Shown here: positions 16,500-38,949 of the stretch, piece after piece
Numbering within the stretch: position 1 is the stretch's first letter
How the letters are laid out: each line of letters starts with the position of its first letter
Origin: Escherichia coli
GTDB lineage: Bacteria > Pseudomonadota > Gammaproteobacteria > Enterobacterales > Enterobacteriaceae
NCBI RefSeq assembly: GCF_003334765.1
Contig: NZ_QOWT01000023.1
Strand: one strand, 5' to 3'
Length of the DNA: 64,000 bases
Notes under the pieces: model-generated
Databases searched by the model: none
What the model was told of the DNA's origin: nothing
Seen by the model: the letters and a program-made list of their open reading frames with translations, nothing else
Position numbers and translations under genes: made by a program

Positions 16500-17231
16500 T
16501 TACTGTGGGAACCACTGGTCACTGATTTTTTGATAAGTACCGTCAGCTTTAATTGCTGCCAGCGCGTTATTCAGTTTTTCCAGCAGGGCTTTGTTATCCG
16601 GACGTACAGCGATGCCCAGGCCGGTGCCAAAATATTGCGGATCGGTCACTTTCTCAGTAGCAACACCAAGTTGTGGATTGGTTTTCAGCCATTCGTTTAC
16701 CACCGCTGTGTCACCAAATACCCCATCAATACGACCATTTTTCAGATCGATAAAGGCATTCTGATAACTGTCATAAGAGACAGTTTTCACTTCCGGGTGC
16801 TGATCCTGAATATATTTCTGGTGCGTAGTACCGTTTTCCATCCCAATACGTTTGCCTTTCAGATCGGCAAACGTTTTGTAGGTATCTTTTTTGGCAATCA
16901 CGACGGCTGAGTTTTCATAGTAGGGCGTGGTAAACGATACCTGTTTGCTACGCTCCGGGGTGATATCCATACCGGAGATTACGGCGTCATATTTTCTGAA
17001 TTTCAGGGACGGGATCAGGCTGTCGAACGCGTGATTAGTAAAAGTACATTCTGCCTGCATTTGTTTGCACAAGGCTTTTGCCAGATCGATATCAAAGCCG
17101 ACAATCTCATTATTAGCACCTATAGATTCAAAGGGTGGATAGGTGGCTGAAACGCCAAAATTGATTTTCTCTGCGGCAGAAGCACCGAAAGTAAAGGAAG
17201 CAAGTAAAGCGGCAAGAACTAACTTTTTCAT
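16500..17231 (-). CDS. artJ: arginine ABC transporter periplasmic binding protein ArtJ
   Basis: 243-aa product MKKLVLAALLASFTFGASAAEKINFG...; start taken at MKKLVL (ORF track extends to 17282). Confidence 0.95.
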   Translation of the reverse strand: MKKLVLAALLASFTFGASAAEKINFGVSATYPPFESIGANNEIVGFDIDLAKALCKQMQAECTFTNHAFDSLIPSLKFRKYDAVISGMDITPERSKQVSFTTPYYENSAVVIAKKDTYKTFADLKGKRIGMENGTTHQKYIQDQHPEVKTVSYDSYQNAFIDLKNGRIDGVFGDTAVVNEWLKTNPQLGVATEKVTDPQYFGTGLGIAVRPDNKALLEKLNNALAAIKADGTYQKISDQWFPQ

Positions 17232-28817: not shown

Positions 28818-30470
28818 TTACGCGCTCAACAGTTGCTTCATGTCTTCTTCAACAGTGGTGATAGAACGCAGGCCGAATTTCTCGTTCAGCACCGCCAGCA
28901 GGTCTGGTGTCAGGAAACCAGGTGCAGTCGGGCCGGTGACGATATTTTTCACGCCCAGAGAAAGCAGCGTCAGCAGAATGACGATCGCTTTCTGTTCAAA
29001 CCAGGAGAGCACCAGCGACAGCGGCAGATCGTTGACACCGCAGCCCAGTTTCTCTGCCAGAGTGACAGCCAGAATAATCGCTGAGTAAGCATCGTTACAT
29101 TGACCTGCATCTACCAGACGCGGCAGACCTTCGATATCGCCAAACTCAAGTTTGTTAAAGCGATATTTACCACAGGCGAGGGTCAGGATCAGGCAGTCAT
29201 CCGGCACGCTGGTGGCGAAATCGGTGAAGTAGTGGCGCTCGCCGCGTGCGCCGTCACAGCCACCAAGCAGGAAGATATGACGCAGTTTTTCACGGCTCAC
29301 CAGATCAATCAGCGTATCAGCAGCGCCAAGCAGCGTCTGGCGACCAAAACCCACGGTGATAAGGTGCGGAATTTCGCTGTACGGGAAGCCTGCCATCTGT
29401 TGCGCCTGGGTGATAACCGCAGAGAAATCATCACCGTCCAGATGACGCACGCCAGGCCAGCCAACAATGCTGCGGGTCCAGATACGATCGTCATAAGCGC
29501 CTACGGTTGGGTCGATGATGCAGTTCGAGGTCATCACGATGGGGCCAGGGAAACGAGCGAACTCCACTTGCTGATTCTGCCAGCCGCTGCCGTAGTTACC
29601 GACCAGATGCTTGAATTTACGCAGCTCCGGGTAGCCATGCGCAGGCAGCATTTCGCCGTGGGTGTAGACATTAACGCCCGTGCCTTCGGTCTGTTCCAGC
29701 AGGTTGTAGAGATCTTTGAGATCGTGACCGGAAATCAGAATGCATTTACCCGCCGTCGCTTTGACGTTGACCTGGGTTGGCGTCGGGTGACCGTATTTAC
29801 CGGTTTCGCCTGCATCCAGAATGCTCATCACTTTGAAGTTCATCTGGCCGATTTCCATTGAACACTCAAGAAGCGCGTTCATATCGGCAGGCCAGGTCCC
29901 CAGCCACGCCATGATTTTATGGTACTGGGCATAAATATCGTTGTCGTATTGACCGAGAACATGCGCGTGTTCCATATAGGCCGCCGCACCTTTCAGGCCA
30001 TACAGGCACAGCAGACGCAGGCCGAGAATGTTTTCGCCAATCGCCGCTTTATCTTTGTTAGGGGTAAATTCTGCTGCCTGACGTTGCAGCTCGCCGAGAT
30101 CGTCGCTCACCAGTTGCAGGTCAGCCATCGGGTTATCGACGCGCGCGTTGGCATCTACAGCCAGGCATTGCGCTTTCAGCGCCTCGCGCAGGGCAATCGC
30201 TTCACGAGCGTAGCCGACAATACGCGGAGAATCGAAGTTAACGTTGGTCAGGGTTGAGAAAAAGGCACGTGGCGCGAAGCTGTCAACATCGTGGTTGATG
30301 ATGCCGTATTCACGCGCTTTTACCGCCCAGGCAGAAAGCCCTTGCAGCGCCGCGATGAGTAAATCCTGAAGGTCAGAAGTTTCCGCCGTTTTACCACACA
30401 TCCCCTGCGCGTATGAGCAGCCGTTTCCTGCCGGAGTACGGATAGTTTGTTCACATTGCACACAAAACAT
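28818..30470 (-). CDS. hcp: hydroxylamine reductase / hybrid-cluster protein
   Basis: 550-aa product starting [28 protein letters not shown] (N-terminal Cys cluster). Confidence 0.95.
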
Positions 30471-30613
30471 GATCACACCTTTTAAAGTTATATTTAATAT
30501 ACATGTTTAAGGTTAAGACGCTTAACGCGGGGATAAAAGGGATTTTTCATGCAACTTTAAGGGAGATTGATTTAGCGCAATTTTGGCGGCAGGGATCTAC
30601 CGCCAGAGAGGTA

Positions 30614-31513
30614 TTACGCAGAGAAAAAGGCGATGAGGATCGGCACTAACAGGCTAAGAATAAAACCGTGAACAATTGCCGCCGGGACCATATCCAGCCC
30701 GCCAGTACGTTGAAGAACGGGCAGGGTGAAATCCATTGATGTGGCACCGCATAAGCCCAGTGCAGTAGAGCGGCTGCGGCGAATCAGCCCAGGGATCAAC
30801 ATAATAGCAATCAGTTCACGGGCCAGATCATTAAAAAACGCCGCGCTCCCGATTACCGGACCAAAAGATTCGGTCAATAAAATACCGGAAAGAGAATACC
30901 AGCCGAAACCGGAGGCCATTGCCAGCGCGGTATTGATGGGGAGATCAAGAATAAAGGCGTTAATTAAACCACCAATTAATGAACTGACAACCACCACCAC
31001 GGCGACAATCATTCCCCGGCGATTAAGGACAATCTGCTTTAAGGTCATGCCATTATTGCGCAACTGAATACCAACGAGGAAAAGTAGCAAAATTAACGTG
31101 TATTCACTGGCTTCGGTTGCGTGTTGTAAGAAAGCCAGTCCACTTAGACCAATGGCAAAACCAATCACTACTACGCCGCACAGTTTTAGCGACTCCAGCG
31201 CCATCGCAATACGCGACGGGAGTTTTTCTTGCTGATGGTGGTTGCGCCACGGCAGGCCTCGCTCCAGCCACATCAGGGCGGCAATATTACACAGTAAAAT
31301 AACGGTAATACTGACGGCAGAATAATGCAGAATCGCCAACAGGTTACTGGCGAGGTTATCGAGAAACGCCAGACTGATACCCATAAAAAAGAGAATAAGG
31401 TAAACCATCCAGCTTAATAGCTGATTAATAACTTTTAACGCAGCTTGTTGGCGAAGCGGAATGAGGTAACCCACAATCAGGGGAACCAGAATGATTAACA
31501 GCCCAGAAAACAT
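30614..31513 (-). CDS. ybjE: lysine exporter LysO (YbjE)
   Basis: 299-aa membrane protein starting MFSGLLIILVPLIVGYLIPL; start at the ATG at 31511-31513. Confidence 0.9.
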   Translation of the reverse strand: MFSGLLIILVPLIVGYLIPLRQQAALKVINQLLSWMVYLILFFMGISLAFLDNLASNLLAILHYSAVSITVILLCNIAALMWLERGLPWRNHHQQEKLPSRIAMALESLKLCGVVVIGFAIGLSGLAFLQHATEASEYTLILLLFLVGIQLRNNGMTLKQIVLNRRGMIVAVVVVVSSLIGGLINAFILDLPINTALAMASGFGWYSLSGILLTESFGPVIGSAAFFNDLARELIAIMLIPGLIRRSRSTALGLCGATSMDFTLPVLQRTGGLDMVPAAIVHGFILSLLVPILIAFFSA

Positions 31514-31968
31514 GAAAACCCAGTCCTTGCAAAGATGAAGTCGAAATGCGCGATGACACACTACTGAAAGCGGAAGGACGAGTAAAGTTGCAATTAAAAG
31601 GAAATGTTATGCATAAGGAGCAGTAGAGTATTCGTTTTCATTTAAAGATATTCTTGCGCTTTAATTACAAACTGCACCGATGTTGGTGGCGTCAAAATCG
31701 CCGAGGCGTTCCCTGAAGGCCGGGGCAGCCCACATGGATGTGGGCTGAGGGCGCGTTTTACAGGGATGTTACCTCGCGCCCGACCCGGTAGCCGTAAGGG
31801 ATAAGTCGAGGGCACCGCGCAGCGGCGATTTTGTTCGCCAGAGCCCGGGGGTGCAGGGGGCGGCGGCGATTGGCCGCCCCCTGCGCGCTCCTTGCGCCAG
31901 TGGCAATATGTTGCTTAGCTCATGAAAGGAGCGCAACAAGATGATGAATCAACATATAACAACATCTT

Positions 31969-31997
31969 AAAAAAAGGCCTGACATTACGCCAGGCCT
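31969..31997 (-). terminator. rho-independent terminator of aqpZ
   Basis: Hairpin aggcctg...caggcct with T-run on the minus strand immediately 3' of the aqpZ stop. Confidence 0.6.
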
Positions 31998-32007
31998 TCT
32001 GCGTTAA

Positions 32008-32703
32008 TTAATCACGCTTTTCCAGCAGGGTCCGGTAAATCAGACCACCGATAATGCCGCCGACAATTGGCACCACCCAGAAGAACCACAGTTGTTCTAA
32101 TGCCCAGCCGCCCTGGAAGATAGCAACCGCGGTGCTGCGCGCCGGGTTAACAGAAGTGTTAGTCACCGGAATACTAATTAAGTGAATCAGGGTTAAGGCC
32201 AGACCAATAGCGATCGGCGCAAAACCTGCCGGCGCGAATTTGTCGGTTGCGCCGTGGATCACCAACAGGAAACCTGCACTCAATACCAGTTCAACTACCA
32301 GCGCGGAAAGCATGGAATAACCGCCTGGTGAATGCTCGCCATAACCGTTAGAAGCAAAACCGCTGGCTGCCGCGTCAAAACCCGTTTTACCACTGGCAAT
32401 TAAATACAGCAGCGCCGCTGCAACAATACCGCCGACAACCTGGGCAATTACGTAGCCAACGACTTCTTTTGCCGGAAAACGTCCGCCAGCCCATAAACCA
32501 ATAGTGACCGCCGGGTTAAAATGACCACCAGAAATATGACCAACAGCAAAGGCCATCGTCAGAACGGTCAGACCGAACGCCAACGCCACGCCGGCAAAAC
32601 CAATGCCTAATTCCGGGAAGCCTGCGGCCAGTACAGCACTACCACAGCCACCAAAAACAAGCCAGAAAGTACCAAAACATTCAGCTGCTAATTTTCTGAA
32701 CAT
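32008..32703 (-). CDS. aqpZ: aquaporin Z
   Basis: 231-aa MIP-family channel with two NPA motifs (HFNPAVT, NPARS). Confidence 0.96.
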
Positions 32704-33128
32704 ATCCACCTCAATTAAAAATTGACCCTGTGAAAAATATGGTCGTTTTATAGGGTCGTCGTAAAAAAGTGACGACGGAAATAATGCGCGGCTATTTTAA
32801 AAACGAAGGCGAGTCATTCACCAGATAAATAAATCCAGTAAATTTGATTTAGGGCAACAGCGGGTTGCCCCATATAGTCATTTGTCTGATTGACAGTGTA
32901 GTGCACGCAAAAGATTTAATCCTTTAGGCGTAATAAAAAATAATTTATCATGCTAATTATTTGATTTTGTTGTTTTTGCAGACTTATCAGCAAGAGGGAG
33001 TATAACGCGATTATTCGCTCATTTTTCAGACATTTGCCATGCTTAAATGTGATGTCATCACGTATTAGCAAGGCCTTTCCCGTTATACTGCCAGCGTAAA
33101 GGATAAGTCACATATTTCTGGAGGGGAT

Positions 33129-34787
33129 ATGATTCTTGAGCGCGTTGAAATTGTGGGTTTTCGCGGTATCAACCGTTTGTCGTTGATGCTGGAACAAAAC
33201 AACGTCCTGATTGGGGAGAACGCGTGGGGTAAATCCAGCTTGCTGGACGCCTTAACTCTGCTGCTATCGCCAGAATCAGATCTCTACCATTTTGAGCGCG
33301 ACGATTTCTGGTTCCCGCCGGGAGATATCAACGGGCGAGAACATCATCTGCATATTATTTTGACCTTCCGCGAATCGCTGCCAGGCCGACATCGGGTTCG
33401 CCGTTATCGGCCGCTGGAAGCGTGCTGGACGCCATGCACCGATGGCTATCACCGTATTTTTTATCGTCTGGAAGGGGAGAGTGCGGAAGACGGCAGCGTG
33501 ATGACACTGCGCAGTTTTCTCGATAAAGACGGACATCCGATTGATGTCGAGGATATTAACGATCAGGCACGCCATCTGGTGCGTTTAATGCCGGTGCTGC
33601 GCTTGCGTGATGCCCGTTTTATGCGCCGTATTCGTAACGGCACGGTGCCAAATGTCCCTAATGTGGAAGTCACCGCGCGCCAGCTCGATTTCCTCGCCCG
33701 TGAGTTATCCTCACATCCGCAAAATCTCTCTGATGGGCAGATTCGTCAGGGACTTTCCGCAATGGTACAGCTGCTTGAGCATTATTTCTCTGAGCAGGGG
33801 GCCGGACAGGCGCGATATCGTTTAATGCGGCGGCGAGCCAGCAATGAGCAACGAAGCTGGCGCTATCTGGATATCATCAACCGGATGATTGACCGACCTG
33901 GTGGGCGCTCGTATCGGGTTATTTTGCTCGGCCTATTTGCTACTTTGTTGCAGGCAAAAGGCACATTGCGACTGGATAAAGACGCCCGTCCATTGTTGCT
34001 GATCGAAGATCCAGAAACCCGTTTACACCCCATTATGCTTTCAGTTGCCTGGCATCTGTTGAATCTTCTGCCATTGCAGCGCATTGCCACCACCAACTCG
34101 GGTGAGTTGCTTTCGTTAACGCCGGTAGAGCATGTTTGCCGACTGGTACGTGAGTCCTCGCGCGTTGCCGCCTGGCGTCTGGGGCCGAGTGGCTTGAGTA
34201 CCGAAGATAGCCGACGCATATCCTTTCACATTCGTTTTAACCGTCCGTCATCGCTGTTTGCACGCTGCTGGTTGCTGGTGGAAGGGGAAACGGAAACCTG
34301 GGTTATCAATGAACTGGCGCGTCAGTGCGGACATCATTTTGATGCCGAAGGGATCAAGGTCATTGAGTTTGCCCAGTCCGGGCTAAAGCCACTGGTTAAA
34401 TTTGCCCGCCGAATGGGGATTGAATGGCATGTACTGGTCGATGGCGATGAAGCAGGGAAGAAATATGCCGCTACGGTACGCAGCCTGTTGAATAACGATC
34501 GGGAAGCCGAACGAGAACATTTAACGGCGTTACCGGCGCTGGATATGGAACATTTTATGTATCGCCAGGGATTTTCCGATGTGTTCCACCGCATGGCGCA
34601 AATCCCGGAAAATGTACCGATGAATCTACGCAAAATTATCTCGAAAGCGATCCATCGCTCTTCCAAACCCGATCTTGCCATTGAAGTGGCAATGGAGGCA
34701 GGACGTCGTGGTGTGGACTCCGTACCGACGCTGCTGAAAAAAATGTTCTCACGCGTGCTGTGGCTGGCGCGCGGTCGCGCGGATTAA
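33129..34787 (+). CDS. ybjD: YbjD, putative OLD-family ATP-dependent endonuclease (ATPase + Toprim-like C-terminus)
   Basis: 552-aa ORF with N-terminal P-loop GENAWGKSSLLDAL; conserved K-12 position between aqpZ and ybjX. Confidence 0.85.
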   Translation: MILERVEIVGFRGINRLSLMLEQNNVLIGENAWGKSSLLDALTLLLSPESDLYHFERDDFWFPPGDINGREHHLHIILTFRESLPGRHRVRRYRPLEACWTPCTDGYHRIFYRLEGESAEDGSVMTLRSFLDKDGHPIDVEDINDQARHLVRLMPVLRLRDARFMRRIRNGTVPNVPNVEVTARQLDFLARELSSHPQNLSDGQIRQGLSAMVQLLEHYFSEQGAGQARYRLMRRRASNEQRSWRYLDIINRMIDRPGGRSYRVILLGLFATLLQAKGTLRLDKDARPLLLIEDPETRLHPIMLSVAWHLLNLLPLQRIATTNSGELLSLTPVEHVCRLVRESSRVAAWRLGPSGLSTEDSRRISFHIRFNRPSSLFARCWLLVEGETETWVINELARQCGHHFDAEGIKVIEFAQSGLKPLVKFARRMGIEWHVLVDGDEAGKKYAATVRSLLNNDREAEREHLTALPALDMEHFMYRQGFSDVFHRMAQIPENVPMNLRKIISKAIHRSSKPDLAIEVAMEAGRRGVDSVPTLLKKMFSRVLWLARGRAD

Positions 34788-35776
34788 CCGCGAAACATCG
34801 TGGCCATTTGTGGCTGAATAGCGTCGAGCATCTCATAGCGCCGACGGTATTCAGCCCGTTTTTTACTGGCGATTTCGGCAATCTCTTTTCGTGCTATCTG
34901 TGCTGGAAGGCGGTAATGGCGTTCAGCATCACATACGCCGCCAACCGATTCCCAGAAAGCGTTGTAATCAGCGTGGATCTTGCCTTCTTTATCGCGATAA
35001 CGCAGGCTGCGGTAAATATGCGTTTCATTGCTGACGGCAATAATCTGCTCTACCTGCAAACGTTGGGCAAACAGACAGGCCGCTTCCATCACGAGGCGTT
35101 TGGGAAATAGCCCGTGGCAGGCTTTCGTCGCATTCTGGATTTCCTGATGTGGAATTTCCCATTTTGCGCCTTGCAGTCCGCCAATAAACATCGTTCTTTT
35201 CCCCTGATATTCACACAGGGTAAACGTGATCTCTGCCAGAGGAATACCTTCGCTGTTGCGGAACAGGATTGTGCTGTCACCTTCTTTATCCATTGAGATC
35301 ATCATGGTCAGCTCAAGCGTGAACTGCTCGCCGTTTTTGCCTTCCAGCTTCGCCAGTTGCAGCCCGGGGGTATTCAAATATAAGCTGAATTCTTCCGCCG
35401 ACATACATTCGCGGAGTAACGCATAATGGTAACGTAACGCCTCCAGCAATTGCTTACGGCTAAGATTCGCCGCAAGGTAAGGGCGATGCAGACGCACAGG
35501 CAGTCGCGGCTGGCGCGTTAACAATACATTGAGATTAGGCCAGTGGGAAAGTTCGTTCATCCACTCAACGCTTAAACGCGGCATAATCAACGAGCGCAGC
35601 AAAAATTTCTGGCGAAAACTACGGCGATGCCAGAATTTACCCGGCCGACACTGTCCACGTGCCAGACTAAGAAAAAGTGACAGGCTGCTGAGAGATTCAG
35701 ATGGCGTAAAGGTCCGTTCAGTTAGCTGCGACATATTCATGAAATCAATGGTTATACATGGCGTCGATTTCACCAT
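34784..35776 (-). CDS. ybjX: YbjX (VirK-like / DUF535) protein
   Basis: 330-aa ORF in conserved position. Confidence 0.88.
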   Translation of the reverse strand: MVKSTPCITIDFMNMSQLTERTFTPSESLSSLSLFLSLARGQCRPGKFWHRRSFRQKFLLRSLIMPRLSVEWMNELSHWPNLNVLLTRQPRLPVRLHRPYLAANLSRKQLLEALRYHYALLRECMSAEEFSLYLNTPGLQLAKLEGKNGEQFTLELTMMISMDKEGDSTILFRNSEGIPLAEITFTLCEYQGKRTMFIGGLQGAKWEIPHQEIQNATKACHGLFPKRLVMEAACLFAQRLQVEQIIAVSNETHIYRSLRYRDKEGKIHADYNAFWESVGGVCDAERHYRLPAQIARKEIAEIASKKRAEYRRRYEMLDAIQPQMATMFRG

Positions 35777-35890
35777 TGCGTATCTTAACCAAACATCAAT
35801 AGTGTGATTACTAACGTAAATTTTAGGGTTTTGTTGATATTTCGTTGAAGTTAATGACCCGGATTGGCATATGGAGTATTCAGAAAATTT

Positions 35891-37006
35891 ATGAAAAAGC
35901 GGAAAACCGTGAAGAAGCGTTACGTTATTGCGCTGGTGATAGTCATCGCCGGACTGATTACGTTATGGAGAATTCTTAACGCACCCGTGCCGACTTATCA
36001 GACGCTGATTGTGCGCCCCGGTGATTTACAGCAAAGCGTGCTGGCGACCGGAAAGCTGGACGCGCTGCGTAAGGTTGATGTGGGCGCGCAGGTCAGCGGT
36101 CAGTTGAAAACTCTGTCGGTGGCGATTGGCGATAAAGTAAAAAAAGACCAGCTTTTAGGGGTTATTGATCCTGAACAGGCTGAAAACCAGATTAAGGAGG
36201 TCGAAGCAACGCTGATGGAGCTACGTGCGCAGCGGCAGCAGGCGGAAGCGGAGCTGAAACTGGCGCGGGTGACGTATTCCCGTCAGCAACGTCTGGCACA
36301 AACGAAGGCTGTTTCACAGCAGGATCTCGACACCGCCGCGACGGAGATGGCTGTGAAACAGGCGCAAATTGGCACCATTGACGCGCAAATCAAGCGCAAT
36401 CAGGCTTCTCTCGATACGGCTAAAACCAATCTCGATTACACTCGCATCGTTGCCCCGATGGCCGGGGAAGTCACGCAAATCACCACTCTGCAAGGCCAGA
36501 CGGTGATTGCCGCACAACAAGCACCGAACATTCTGACGCTGGCAGATATGAGCACCATGCTGGTAAAAGCGCAGGTTTCTGAAGCGGATGTAATCCACCT
36601 GAAGCCGGGGCAAAAAGCCTGGTTTACGGTGCTTGGCGATCCACTGACGCGCTACGAGGGGCAAATCAAGGATGTACTACCGACGCCGGAAAAGGTTAAC
36701 GACGCTATTTTCTATTACGCCCGTTTTGAAGTCCCCAACCCCAATGGTTTGCTGCGGCTGGATATGACTGCGCAAGTGCATATTCAGCTCACCGATGTGA
36801 AAAATGTGCTGACGATCCCTCTGTCGGCGTTAGGCGATCCGGTTGGCGATAATCGTTATAAAGTCAAATTGTTGCGTAATGGTGAAACACGCGAGCGTGA
36901 AGTGACGATTGGCGCACGTAACGATACCGATGTTGAGATTGTCAAAGGGCTTGAAGCGGGCGATGAAGTGGTGATTGGTGAGGCCAAACCAGGAGCTGCA
37001 CAATGA
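35891..37006 (+). CDS. macA: macrolide efflux periplasmic adaptor MacA
   Basis: 371-aa membrane-fusion protein starting [22 protein letters not shown]; start at the ATG at 35891. Confidence 0.94.
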
Positions 37007-38949
37007 CGCCTTTGCTCGAATTAAAGGATATTCGTCGCAGCTATCCTGCCGGTGATGAGCAGGTTGAGGTGCTGAAGGGCATCAGCCTCGATATTTATGC
37101 GGGTGAGATGGTCGCGATTGTTGGCGCTTCGGGTTCCGGTAAATCGACCCTGATGAATATTCTCGGCTGTCTGGATAAGGCCACCAGCGGCACCTATCGC
37201 GTCGCCGGTCAGGATGTTGCCACGCTGGACGCCGATGCGCTGGCGCAACTGCGCCGCGAGCATTTCGGCTTTATTTTCCAGCGTTACCATTTGCTTTCGC
37301 ATTTAACCGCCGAGCAGAACGTTGAAGTACCCGCCGTCTATGCTGGTCTTGAGCGGAAACAGCGACTGCTTCGTGCCCAGGAGTTGCTGCAACGGCTGGG
37401 GCTGGAAGACCGTACAGAGTATTATCCGGCACAGCTTTCGGGTGGTCAGCAACAGCGCGTCAGCATCGCGCGGGCATTGATGAACGGTGGTCAGGTAATT
37501 CTTGCCGATGAACCAACCGGCGCACTGGACAGCCATTCTGGCGAAGAGGTGATGGCGATCCTGCATCAGCTGCGCGATCGTGGGCATACGGTGATTATCG
37601 TCACCCACGATCCGCAGGTCGCTGCTCAGGCCGAGCGGGTGATCGAAATTCGCGACGGCGAAATTGTGCGCAATCCTCCCGCCATTGAAAAAGTGAATGT
37701 TACTGGCGGGACGGAACCTGTTGTCAACACGGTGTCTGGCTGGCGGCAGTTTGTCAGCGGTTTTAACGAGGCGCTGACGATGGCATGGCGGGCGCTGGCA
37801 GCGAATAAAATGCGTACTTTACTGACCATGCTGGGGATTATTATCGGTATTGCGTCGGTGGTTTCCATTGTCGTGGTGGGTGACGCCGCCAAACAAATGG
37901 TGCTGGCGGATATTCGTTCTATTGGTACGAATACTATTGATGTCTATCCCGGGAAAGATTTTGGCGATGACGATCCGCAATATCAGCAGGCGCTGAAGTA
38001 CGACGACTTAATCGCCATCCAAAAACAACCGTGGGTCGCCTCAGCCACACCTGCCGTCTCGCAAAACCTGCGCCTGCGTTATAACAATGTTGATGTTGCT
38101 GCCAGTGCCAATGGCGTGAGCGGCGATTATTTTAATGTCTATGGCATGACCTTCAGTGAAGGAAACACCTTTAATCAGGAGCAGCTGAACGGTCGTGCGC
38201 AGGTCGTGGTTCTCGACAGTAATACTCGCCGCCAGCTTTTCCCCCATAAAGCAGATGTGGTTGGCGAGGTGATTCTGGTCGGCAATATGCCCGCCAGAGT
38301 CATTGGTGTGGCGGAAGAAAAACAGTCGATGTTTGGTAGCAGTAAAGTGCTGCGTGTCTGGCTACCTTACAGCACGATGTCCGGGCGAGTTATGGGCCAG
38401 TCGTGGCTTAACTCCATTACTGTCAGGGTGAAAGAAGGATTTGACAGCGCCGAGGCGGAACAGCAACTCACGCGTTTACTTTCACTGCGCCACGGAAAGA
38501 AGGATTTCTTTACCTGGAACATGGACGGCGTCTTGAAAACTGTTGAAAAGACCACACGTACTTTACAACTGTTTCTGACGCTGGTGGCGGTGATTTCGCT
38601 GGTGGTGGGCGGTATTGGTGTAATGAATATTATGCTGGTGTCAGTGACCGAGCGGACGCGGGAAATTGGCATTCGCATGGCTGTAGGTGCGCGAGCAAGC
38701 GATGTTTTGCAACAGTTCCTGATCGAAGCCGTACTGGTTTGCCTGGTCGGTGGCGCGTTGGGAATAACACTGTCACTGTTAATTGCTTTCACCTTGCAGC
38801 TTTTCTTACCCGGCTGGGAGATTGGTTTTTCACCGTTGGCGCTGCTGCTGGCGTTTCTCTGCTCGACGGTCACCGGGATTTTATTTGGCTGGTTACCCGC
38901 ACGAAATGCGGCACGACTGGATCCAGTAGATGCTCTGGCACGAGAGTAA
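37003..38949 (+). CDS. macB: macrolide efflux ABC transporter MacB (ATPase + permease)
   Basis: 648-aa product with Walker [10 protein letters not shown], signature [10 protein letters not shown]-terminal FtsX-like permease. Confidence 0.95.

Follow-up and report, generated by a model that had tools for sequence, protein, structure and literature searches.

ybjD of Escherichia coli is a conserved core gene for a predicted OLD-family ATP-binding nuclease with a Class-2-type catalytic region

The feature at positions 33129 to 34787 of the window (the whole stretch of Escherichia coli DNA analysed here, 64,000 nucleotides of contig NZ_QOWT01000023.1) is the known gene ybjD, which encodes an intact, predicted ATP-binding nuclease of the OLD family and has already been described. 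Schiltz et al. 2019 (PMC6755086) used YbjD as the query for their searches, and the name oldB (OldB), denoting a Class 1 OLD protein, was proposed by Atahualpa et al. (MicroPubl Biol 2026, PMC13261556). With the gene, its family and its phage phenotypes already in print, the finding itself matters little. What our analysis adds to that last report is a Class-2-type C-terminal region, an asparagine at the H-loop position (Asn323), a selection profile and the phyletic spread of the protein.

Identity of the gene and its locus

The following elements define the gene and its flanks:

33129..34787, + strand: ybjD coding sequence (ORF list; RefSeq annotation under a 100% match; Pfam DUF2813 and OLD-like_TOPRIM)
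33120..33124, + strand: ribosome-binding site GGAGG, read from the sequence and kept across genera
33084..33089, + strand: -10-like hexamer TATACT, a probable ybjD promoter element by cross-genus conservation
34812..34863, + strand: terminator-like hairpin with U-run (inverted repeat I3; RNA fold)

The reading frame runs on the plus strand from an ATG at 33129 to a stop at 34785-34787 and encodes 552 amino acids (ORF list), a size typical of OLD nucleases, as the first-pass annotation had said. The same coordinates carry the label "ybjD: ATP-dependent endonuclease" in RefSeq E. coli genomes, and the protein in the window matches the K-12-type protein at 100% identity over all 552 residues and shares its neighbours and its Walker A lysine, K35. 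The OLD-family membership claimed in the first-pass annotation was borne out by Pfam, PADLOC, PDB-profile and fold searches. The search it had proposed for Toprim and ATPase domains was run with Pfam and returned DUF2813 over residues 1-375 (E 3.5e-160) and OLD-like_TOPRIM over residues 376-440 (E 7.8e-16), with further N-terminal matches to AAA_15, AAA_29 and SMC_N. The GajA and Old models of PADLOC matched down to E 6.8e-80, a value belonging to the top match, GajA model PDLC00094, over residues 260-549. A profile of the YbjD family searched against the PDB retrieved GajA (4e-20) and the Thermus scotoductus (Ts) OLD (3.6e-19), and Foldseek with the full-length AF2 model (pLDDT 86) retrieved GajA (1.8e-19), Ts OLD (3e-17) and Eco8 OLD (3e-14). 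In NCBIfam the sole matches were to the N-terminal P-loop and fell far short of the cut-off, so YbjD has no curated equivalog there.

Upstream of ybjD lies aqpZ on the opposite strand, and ybjX is convergent with it, the two stops overlapping by 4 bp; PMC12288877 lists ybjD-ybjX as a convergent transcript overlap. GC content at the locus is ordinary (0.52-0.53). Defence-system models found nothing among the neighbours save the generic ABC similarity of MacB, Rfam found no structured or retron RNA over 30000-38000, and the ORF list showed neither a reverse-transcriptase ORF near ybjD nor a long conserved antisense ORF opposite it. Across 10 enterobacterial genera, TATACT is the sole conserved upstream block besides the ribosome-binding site and is probably a ybjD promoter element; simple scanning for sigma-70 promoters upstream of ybjD found none, and the evidence for TATACT is its cross-genus conservation. 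A search bearing on SOS control found no LexA box (CTGT-N8-ACAG, one mismatch allowed) in the 419-bp upstream region. The upstream palindrome TGATGTCATCA (33050-33060) was rejected as a regulator site, its spacing being wrong for CRP and the sequence not being kept outside Escherichia. Downstream of the ybjD stop, within the 3' end of convergent ybjX, the hairpin folds at -26.7 kcal/mol (z = -4.05) and is followed by UUUUUU.

An OLD-type ATPase domain with an altered H-loop

These features lie in the N-terminal part of the protein:

33129..34253, + strand: ABC-type ATPase domain (Pfam DUF2813), residues 1-375 (Pfam E 3.5e-160; profile; AF2)
33213..33236, + strand: Walker A / P-loop GENAWGKS, residues 29-36, with K35 (read from the sequence)
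33657..33959, + strand: helical insertion in the ATPase domain, residues about 177-277 (AF2 model)
33993..34031, + strand: Walker B / D-loop stretch LLLIEDPETRLHP, residues 289-301, with E293, D294, E296 and H300 (alignment with P2 Old)
34089..34103, + strand: H-loop position TTNSG, residues 321-325 (alignment with P2 Old)

The family profile matches residues 1-388 of GajA and residues 1-433 of Ts OLD. The N-terminal ABC-type P-loop noted in the first-pass annotation is the GENAWGKS motif at residues 29-36, whose K35 aligns with K37 of P2 Old. Conservation was assessed over 46 diverse relatives of 28-53% identity: G29 and E30 are invariant, and K35 is Lys in 41 of the 46, Arg in 4 and Ser in 1. 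The helical insertion comprises four long helices (177-195, 202-220, 241-255 and 259-277), modelled by AF2 at lower confidence, and is probably a dimerisation domain, by likeness to those of Ts OLD (PMC7049728) and GajA (PMC10568477).

The Walker B and D-loop histidine signature of P2 Old (D299/E300/H306) and Ts OLD (E276/H283) recurs in YbjD, where E293, D294, E296 and H300 align with P2 Old D299, E300, E302 and H306; among the relatives, E293 and E296 are kept in 42/46 and H300 in 45/46. The H-loop differs. Its histidine (P2 H332, which P2 Old requires for killing, and Ts H310) is replaced in YbjD by Asn323, which sits opposite His332 in the alignment with P2 Old, and the "STHS" motif of GajA likewise aligns with "tTns" of the YbjD family profile. 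This position is Asn in 32 relatives, His in 7, Tyr in 4, Gln in 2 and Ala in 1; the reading of Asn323 comes from sequence alignment, and 7/46 relatives keep the histidine. With the histidine replaced, ATP hydrolysis by YbjD is probably slow. Because OLD proteins tolerate deviations from the ABC motifs (PMC7049728), Asn323 argues for altered ATPase chemistry and not against OLD membership.

A predicted two-metal nuclease of Class 2 type

The remainder of the protein is divided between two domains:

34254..34508, + strand: Toprim domain, residues 376-460, with E385 and E389 in LVEGETE and D438 and D440 in DGD (Pfam PF20469, E 7.8e-16)
34509..34784, + strand: C-terminal helical domain, residues 461-552, with D472, E474 and K513

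Mapping onto the mutated residues of P2, Ts and Burkholderia pseudomallei (Bp) OLD places YbjD E385, E389, D438 and D440 opposite Bp OLD E400, E404, D455 and D457, and opposite P2 Old E398, E402, D453 and D455. YbjD bears a complete predicted two-metal nuclease set (E385/D438/D440, E389/D472/E474 and K513). All seven residues are invariant in 46/46 relatives, in an alignment with 25 invariant columns; the absence of Toprim catalytic residues, which the first-pass annotation had named, alongside a lack of phenotype, as refuting its reading, was therefore not what we found. For the second metal site (Bp E404/T506/E508/K562; P2 E402/D541/E543/K550), E389 aligns directly. D472, E474 and K513 are putative metal-B ligands and a putative catalytic lysine, inferred from their conservation and from the overall superposition of the helical domain on Bp OLD, not from a residue-level structural alignment.

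Both structure and profile comparisons place this catalytic C-terminal region, as modelled, in the Class 2 structural type of Gabija GajA and Burkholderia OLD, here lacking a helicase partner: the Foldseek query-normalised TM-score is 0.67-0.72 vs 0.37, and the sequence profile scores 2.6e-7 vs 7e-3.

Distribution and selection

ybjD is a vertically inherited core gene under strong purifying selection. It is intact and single-copy in 5425/5426 complete E. coli genomes (at least 95% nucleotide identity), and the order hcp-lysO-(aqpZ)-ybjD-(ybjX)-macAB is kept across 80 Enterobacterales species, in agreement with the earlier description of a gene standing alone at a conserved core position and outside any island. 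Identity drops with phylogenetic distance, from 90% in Salmonella and Citrobacter through Klebsiella (85%), Serratia (66%), Yersinia (64%) and Proteus (56%) to Aeromonas (45%), Vibrio (43%) and Chitinilyticum (37%). All seven distant relatives whose context was inspected stand alone among housekeeping genes, without a helicase. One laboratory strain has an IS1 inside ybjD.

The dN/dS of ybjD is 0.015-0.06, equal to or below that of macB, aqpZ and hcp. Constraint is tightest, and dN/dS lowest, in the Toprim domain, in which E. coli and E. albertii do not differ by a single amino acid at a dS of 0.85. Beyond E. albertii dS reaches saturation, which leaves dN and the ratio for E. albertii as the measures used; in the Serratia comparison, dN was overstated at 0.348 by an ungapped comparison and is 0.278 with a gapped alignment.

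No close relative of YbjD occurs in 50,697 phage records, the phage collection yielding only P2 Old, which matches a third of the protein at 28% identity, and relatives on true plasmids are partial and at most 31% identical. Apparent plasmid matches of 42% or more proved to be records of chromosomes or chromids. Giant relatives of 1000-1900 aa were considered as SMC-like coiled coils and rejected, their insertions being Ser/Ala/Gly-rich low-complexity stretches. The marks of a mobile defence gene (patchy spread, variable place, mobile elements and defence neighbours) are all missing from ybjD. A core-genome location is, in itself, compatible with defence.

Native role of YbjD

The published experiments (PMC13261556) show that ybjD is transcribed and expressed, that it is non-essential and that knocking it out changes nothing in the response to 68 BASEL phages. 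Overexpression has weak to modest anti-phage effects that need the ATPase domain and can dispense with the Toprim domain: at non-toxic induction, plaquing of Bas18 and Bas20 is reduced and plaques of Bas64-68 are smaller. A K35A mutant is more toxic, and toxicity is RecBC-independent. The phage-neutral knockout and the modest, Toprim-independent overexpression effects bear out the caution of the first-pass annotation, which had called any defence role speculative.

There is a discrepancy here that deserves attention. The only activity reported for YbjD does not need the Toprim domain, yet the nuclease site never varies across the clade and no other part of the protein evolves as slowly, which suggests that the native function is still to be observed. 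The Class-2-type region, Asn323 and the high constraint on a "dispensable" Toprim domain together suggest that this function is not simply mobile phage defence. Resolving the discrepancy would tell us whether an OLD enzyme has been recruited to a cellular task in bacteria as in archaea, and whether the context-defined "Class 1" mixes structurally different OLD lineages.

The explanation we favour, and consider more likely than not, is that ybjD/oldB encodes an OLD ATPase-nuclease with a role in cellular nucleic-acid surveillance or maintenance and not a mobile anti-phage module. A YbjD homodimer would bind nucleic acid; occupation of the ATPase heads by nucleotide would serve mainly as a switch that restrains activity, a reading alongside which the extra toxicity of K35A may be cited; and the Toprim and helical domains would nick or cleave by two-metal catalysis in the service of a conserved cellular surveillance or maintenance task. 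The weak, Toprim-independent anti-phage effects of overexpression would then be a side effect of the ATPase domain and not the native activity. Archaeal Cran1 offers a precedent for a non-defence OLD protein (PMC12796447). Against a maintenance role, the sole reported ybjD phenotypes are anti-phage, with none known in repair or maintenance; ybjD is also non-essential, with no upstream LexA box and no functionally informative neighbour.

The same published effects could instead reflect a true single-gene anti-phage system, a Class 1 OLD "OldB" fixed in the core genome, which would sense infection, perhaps as nucleotide depletion as in Gabija, and stop phage growth, its cognate phages or conditions lying outside the tested panel. 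The reduced plaquing of Bas18/Bas20 and the smaller Bas64-68 plaques (PMC13261556) fit such a system, as do the strong PADLOC matches to GajA and Old, the resemblance of K35A toxicity to ATP-inhibited GajA and the fact that every characterised bacterial OLD protein is defence-related (PMC10568477). We nevertheless think it somewhat unlikely: the knockout is unchanged with 68 phages (PMC13261556), the effect bypasses the Toprim active site that is the family's most conserved part, the gene has a fixed position with no island and no defence neighbours, purifying selection is as strong as on the housekeeping neighbours with no sign of diversification, and neither phage records nor true plasmids carry members of the clade.

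The substrate and the very functionality of YbjD may also be questioned. That it is a Toprim nuclease directed at RNA, such as tRNA or rRNA precursors, and not at DNA, has models in P2 Old, which cuts the tRNA anticodon arm (PMC12445682), in the tRNA-cleaving Toprim nuclease AriB of PARIS (PMC12409363) and in RNase M5, whose active site is mirrored in Class 2 OLD (PMC6755086); however, the closest structural relatives (Bp OLD, GajA and Ts OLD) cleave or nick DNA in vitro and YbjD toxicity is RecBC-independent, unlike that of P2 Old, and we regard an RNA target as improbable. A decaying, functionless relic, for instance a GajA that has lost its GajB helicase, would account for a Class-2-like C-terminal region with no helicase partner, for a knockout with no reported phenotype and for the IS1 insertion. 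This reading is already contradicted by the selection data and is scarcely credible: the frame is intact in 5425/5426 E. coli genomes and transcribed (PMC13261556), dN/dS is 0.015-0.06 with the Toprim domain unchanged between E. coli and E. albertii, and 25 columns are invariant among relatives of 28-53% identity.

We tentatively suggest that YbjD and the DUF2813 clade could form a housekeeping lineage among bacterial OLD proteins, with a Class-2-type nuclease, no helicase and vertical inheritance in Gamma- and Betaproteobacteria. Its strictly conserved nuclease would serve DNA or RNA maintenance in the cell, comparable to the part played by Cran1 in archaea, and the anti-phage effect would be an overexpression by-product of the ATPase domain.

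Relation to known OLD systems

YbjD has the ABC-type ATPase, the Toprim domain with catalytic Glu and DxD (metal A) and the fold of the OLD family. By context it is a Class 1 OLD gene, single and isolated, lacking any partner helicase, retron or split nuclease, and PMC13261556 likewise classes it as stand-alone. It shares ATPase and Toprim motifs with the Class 1 proteins P2 Old, Ts OLD and Vibrio cholerae (Vc) OLD, but has a C-terminal helical domain, whereas the lack of one is the Class 1 hallmark derived from Ts OLD (PMC7049728). P2 Old is carried by a prophage and kills in a way that depends on RecBC status, while YbjD killing is RecBC-independent (PMC13261556); Vc OLD defence needs both ATPase and nuclease residues, while the YbjD phenotype does not need Toprim; and Class 1 genes are described with variable neighbourhoods (PMC12796447), while that of ybjD is fixed in Enterobacterales.

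With the Class 2 proteins (B. pseudomallei and Xanthomonas OLD, Bacillus cereus GajA), YbjD shares the ATPase-Toprim-helical layout, and their metal-A and metal-B acidic residues and helical-domain lysine appear to be kept. Sequence identity to Class 2 OLD and GajA is only about 12-20%, and the GajA H-loop has His where YbjD has Asn. Since the best PADLOC models for YbjD were those of GajA, a helicase partner was sought, and no GajB-like helicase lies beside ybjD or its relatives in the window, the 80 Enterobacterales loci or the 7 distant contexts. Gabija has an adjacent UvrD/PcrA-like GajB helicase; ybjD has none and is a core gene at a fixed position outside any island. Class 3 systems, retrons with an adjacent reverse transcriptase and msr/msd RNA, are unlike ybjD, near which no such ORF or Rfam match occurs, and Class 4 (PARIS) splits ATPase and Toprim between AriA and AriB, whereas ybjD fuses both in one ORF. 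Cran1 (PMC12796447), an OLD-family ATPase-nickase that acts in the archaeal cell cycle, is essential and of a separate class, whereas YbjD is non-essential with no known cell-cycle or chromatin link; like YbjD, Cran1 is conserved on the chromosome, and it does not behave as a defence protein, as YbjD would not in the reading we favour.

The ybjD locus and its expression signals

The ybjD gene occupies exactly the coordinates given by the first-pass annotation, with 552 codons running from an ATG at 33129 to a stop at 34785-34787 on the + strand in the ORF list of the window. The features of the locus are as follows.

33084-33089, +, TATACT, a −10-like hexamer kept across ten genera
33120-33124, +, ribosome-binding site GGAGG 5' of the ybjD ATG, read from sequence
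33129-34787, +, ybjD coding sequence (ORF list; RefSeq "ybjD: ATP-dependent endonuclease" on the same interval)
34812-34863, +, hairpin with a UUUUUU run, −26.7 kcal/mol, z −4.05, starting 25 nt past the ybjD stop

Upstream lie hcr-hcp, lysO (ybjE), and aqpZ on the opposite strand, and downstream the convergent ybjX, whose stop shares the tetranucleotide TTAA with that of ybjD, followed by macA-macB. The GC content of the region is ordinary. The hexamer and the ribosome-binding site are the only elements conserved upstream of ybjD across ten genera, and a CTGT-N8-ACAG pattern scan found no LexA box there. The stable downstream hairpin resembles a terminator for ybjD. It sits within the 3' coding end of ybjX, in agreement with the published listing of the pair as a convergent transcript overlap, or "excludon" (PMC12288877).

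Several other sequences were recorded along the way. A perfect palindrome, TGATGTCATCA, at 33050-33060 (+), about 70 nt 5' of the ybjD start, is confined to Escherichia, with a single base changed in E. albertii, and is not conserved in other genera; its spacing is wrong for a CRP site. The sole exact match in the window to the LexA-box-like pattern CTGT-N8-ACAG is CTGTCATAAGAGACAG at 16768-16783 (+); allowing one mismatch gives 35 occurrences, where about 19 would be expected. In the laboratory strain E. coli NCM3722 (NZ_CP011495.1 2168852-2171287), an IS1A is inserted in ybjD, which is annotated there as two DUF2813 fragments.

YbjD belongs to the OLD family

Pfam assigns residues 1-375 of YbjD to DUF2813 (E 3.5e-160) and residues 376-440 to the OLD-like Toprim (E 7.8e-16), with AAA_15, AAA_29, and SMC_N also matching the N-terminus; no NCBIfam model matched at or above its cut-off. 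Among PADLOC models, those for GajA scored best, reaching 6.8e-80 over residues 260-549, and the Old model came next at 1.9e-24. An alignment of 46 diverse YbjD relatives at 28-53% identity (A1) was the source of both a profile and an AlphaFold2 model. Against the PDB, the profile matched Gabija GajA (4e-20) and Thermus scotoductus (Ts) OLD (3.6e-19) about equally, then PtuA and the retron Eco8 OLD. The model, a confident one (pLDDT 86, pTM 0.85), gave GajA, Ts OLD, and Eco8 OLD as the best Foldseek matches (E 1e-19 to 1e-14). Together, these matches make OLD membership secure.

Nuclease and ATPase residues

Mutations that inactivate P2 Old, Ts OLD, and Burkholderia (Bp) OLD are listed in Schiltz et al. 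2020 (PMC7049728), and we mapped these residues onto YbjD after verifying the P2 Old numbering on the P2 genome record. By alignment, K35 is the Walker A residue, E293-D294-P-E296 and H300 form the Walker B/D-loop, E385, D438, and D440 are the predicted metal-A ligands, and E389 is the predicted first metal-B ligand. From their invariance and overall superposition, we infer that D472-x-E474 and K513 are the counterparts of D541-x-E543/K550 in P2 and T506-x-E508/K562 in Bp OLD. The Toprim search and residue alignment proposed by the first-pass annotation thus find the catalytic residues in place, all seven predicted nuclease residues being invariant in 46/46 relatives.

The ATPase positions are more variable. 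Position 35 is Lys in 41 of the 46 relatives, Arg in 4, and Ser in 1. Hydrolysis by ABC ATPases depends centrally on the H-loop His, whereas nucleotide binding does not. Asn323 of YbjD occupies this position in the sequence alignment (P2 H332, Ts H310, GajA "STHS"), as does Asn in 32/46 relatives, with His in only 7. This substitution suggests that YbjD may bind ATP and hydrolyze it slowly, with the nucleotide acting as a switch. In P2 Old, H332A abolishes killing (PMC7049728). Set against the invariant nuclease residues, the variability at positions 35 and 323 makes ATPase chemistry look the less constrained of the two in the DUF2813 clade. Under the mechanism we propose, YbjD would dimerize via a helical insertion (approximately residues 177-277), its activity would be held in check by ATP binding, and its Toprim and helical domains would cut nucleic acid by two-metal catalysis.

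A core gene under strong purifying selection

ybjD is present as a single copy at ≥95% DNA identity in 5425/5426 complete E. coli genomes. Across 80 Enterobacterales loci, the order hcp-lysO-(aqpZ)-ybjD-(ybjX)-macAB is kept from Escherichia to Serratia; aqpZ, absent from several genera, and ybjX are variable, and ybjD always stays. Protein identity drops with phylogenetic distance, from about 90% in Salmonella and Citrobacter to 85% in Klebsiella, 66% in Serratia, 64% in Yersinia, 56% in Proteus, 45% in Aeromonas, 43% in Vibrio, 40% in Motilimonas, and 37% in the betaproteobacterium Chitinilyticum. By the Nei-Gojobori method, dN/dS is 0.015 in the comparison with E. albertii and 0.03-0.06 in those with other genera, no higher than for macB, aqpZ, hcp, and lysO; in more distant pairs dS is saturated and only dN was compared. 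Constraint is strongest in the Toprim segment, which has zero amino acid changes against E. albertii at a dS of 0.85. YbjD is an ATPase-nuclease of the OLD family that is intact, expressed, and fixed in its core position, and the selection data exclude a decaying relic.

No YbjD-like protein was found in the phage collection, true plasmids held only partial OLD relatives (≤31% identity), and no neighbor matched a defense model apart from the generic ABC similarity of MacB. PLSDB records CP088669.1, CP061270.1, NZ_OL790696.1, NZ_CP141089.1, and others carry ybjD-ybjX at >99% identity; several span 0.7-4.9 Mb and a few 40-90 kb, and all of this appears to be chromosomal DNA deposited under a plasmid label.

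The neighboring ybjX (34784-35776, −) evolves far faster than all its neighbors, with a dN to Citrobacter of 0.34 against 0.06-0.08 for ybjD, macA, and macB, and no copy of it stands between ybjD and macA in Klebsiella, Raoultella, Superficieibacter, and others (among loci L005-L081). Metagenomic relatives of 1000-1900 aa (proteins P0150, P0162-P0165, P0175, P0196; locus L090, 392-4360) are YbjD cores with long insertions after about residues 65 and 497. These are Ser/Ala/Gly-rich, of low complexity, and not coiled coils. One such relative lies near a polA-like gene.

Published phenotypes and the native role

A study of May 2026 characterized ybjD, proposing the name oldB, and found it transcribed (PMC13261556); the finding is therefore already known. 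The Keio deletion left plating of 68 BASEL phages unchanged, while arabinose-driven expression reduced plaquing of Bas18 and Bas20 and gave smaller Bas64-68 plaques (PMC13261556). These results bear out the caution of the first-pass annotation, which had called a defense role speculative. The anti-phage effect was unchanged when the three acidic residues thought to be catalytic were mutated or the entire Toprim domain was removed, and it was abolished by deletion of the ATPase domain (PMC13261556).

The sole reported phenotype is Toprim-independent, yet the Toprim active site is the most conserved part of a vertically inherited clade. This favors a cellular role: YbjD probably serves in nucleic acid surveillance or maintenance, with the overexpression phenotype a by-product of the ATPase domain. 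The main alternative, a true defense gene fixed in the core genome with cognate phages outside the tested set, we consider rather unlikely. An RNA target for YbjD, on the model of P2 Old and AriB, seems improbable.

Relationship to known OLD systems

As a gene standing alone, YbjD is Class 1 by its context, and it has been filed there by Schiltz et al. 2019 (PMC6755086) and the 2026 paper (PMC13261556). Structurally, residues 355-552, which reached a pLDDT of 93.8 when modeled separately, are of the Class 2 type, and the sequence profile of the C-terminal region also sides with Class 2 (2.6e-7 versus 7e-3). A C-terminal helical domain is absent from Ts OLD (PMC7049728), whereas YbjD has one at residues 473-547, bearing K513. 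No UvrD-like helicase adjoins ybjD in the window, the 80 Enterobacterales loci, or seven distant relatives (Vibrio, Chitinilyticum, metagenomes). YbjD therefore resembles the Class 2 enzymes but does not have the partner that defines them, consistent with the published OLD tree, in which Class 2 is nested within Class 1 (PMC12796447). It could perhaps represent a lineage of bacterial OLD proteins that has a housekeeping role, a nuclease region of the Gabija type, and no helicase. YbjD toxicity does not depend on RecBC, in contrast to that of P2 Old (PMC13261556). In the published K35A mutant the phage effect persists and toxicity is increased (PMC13261556), which fits the nucleotide-switch reading, and such a switch would recall the ATP-inhibited GajA.
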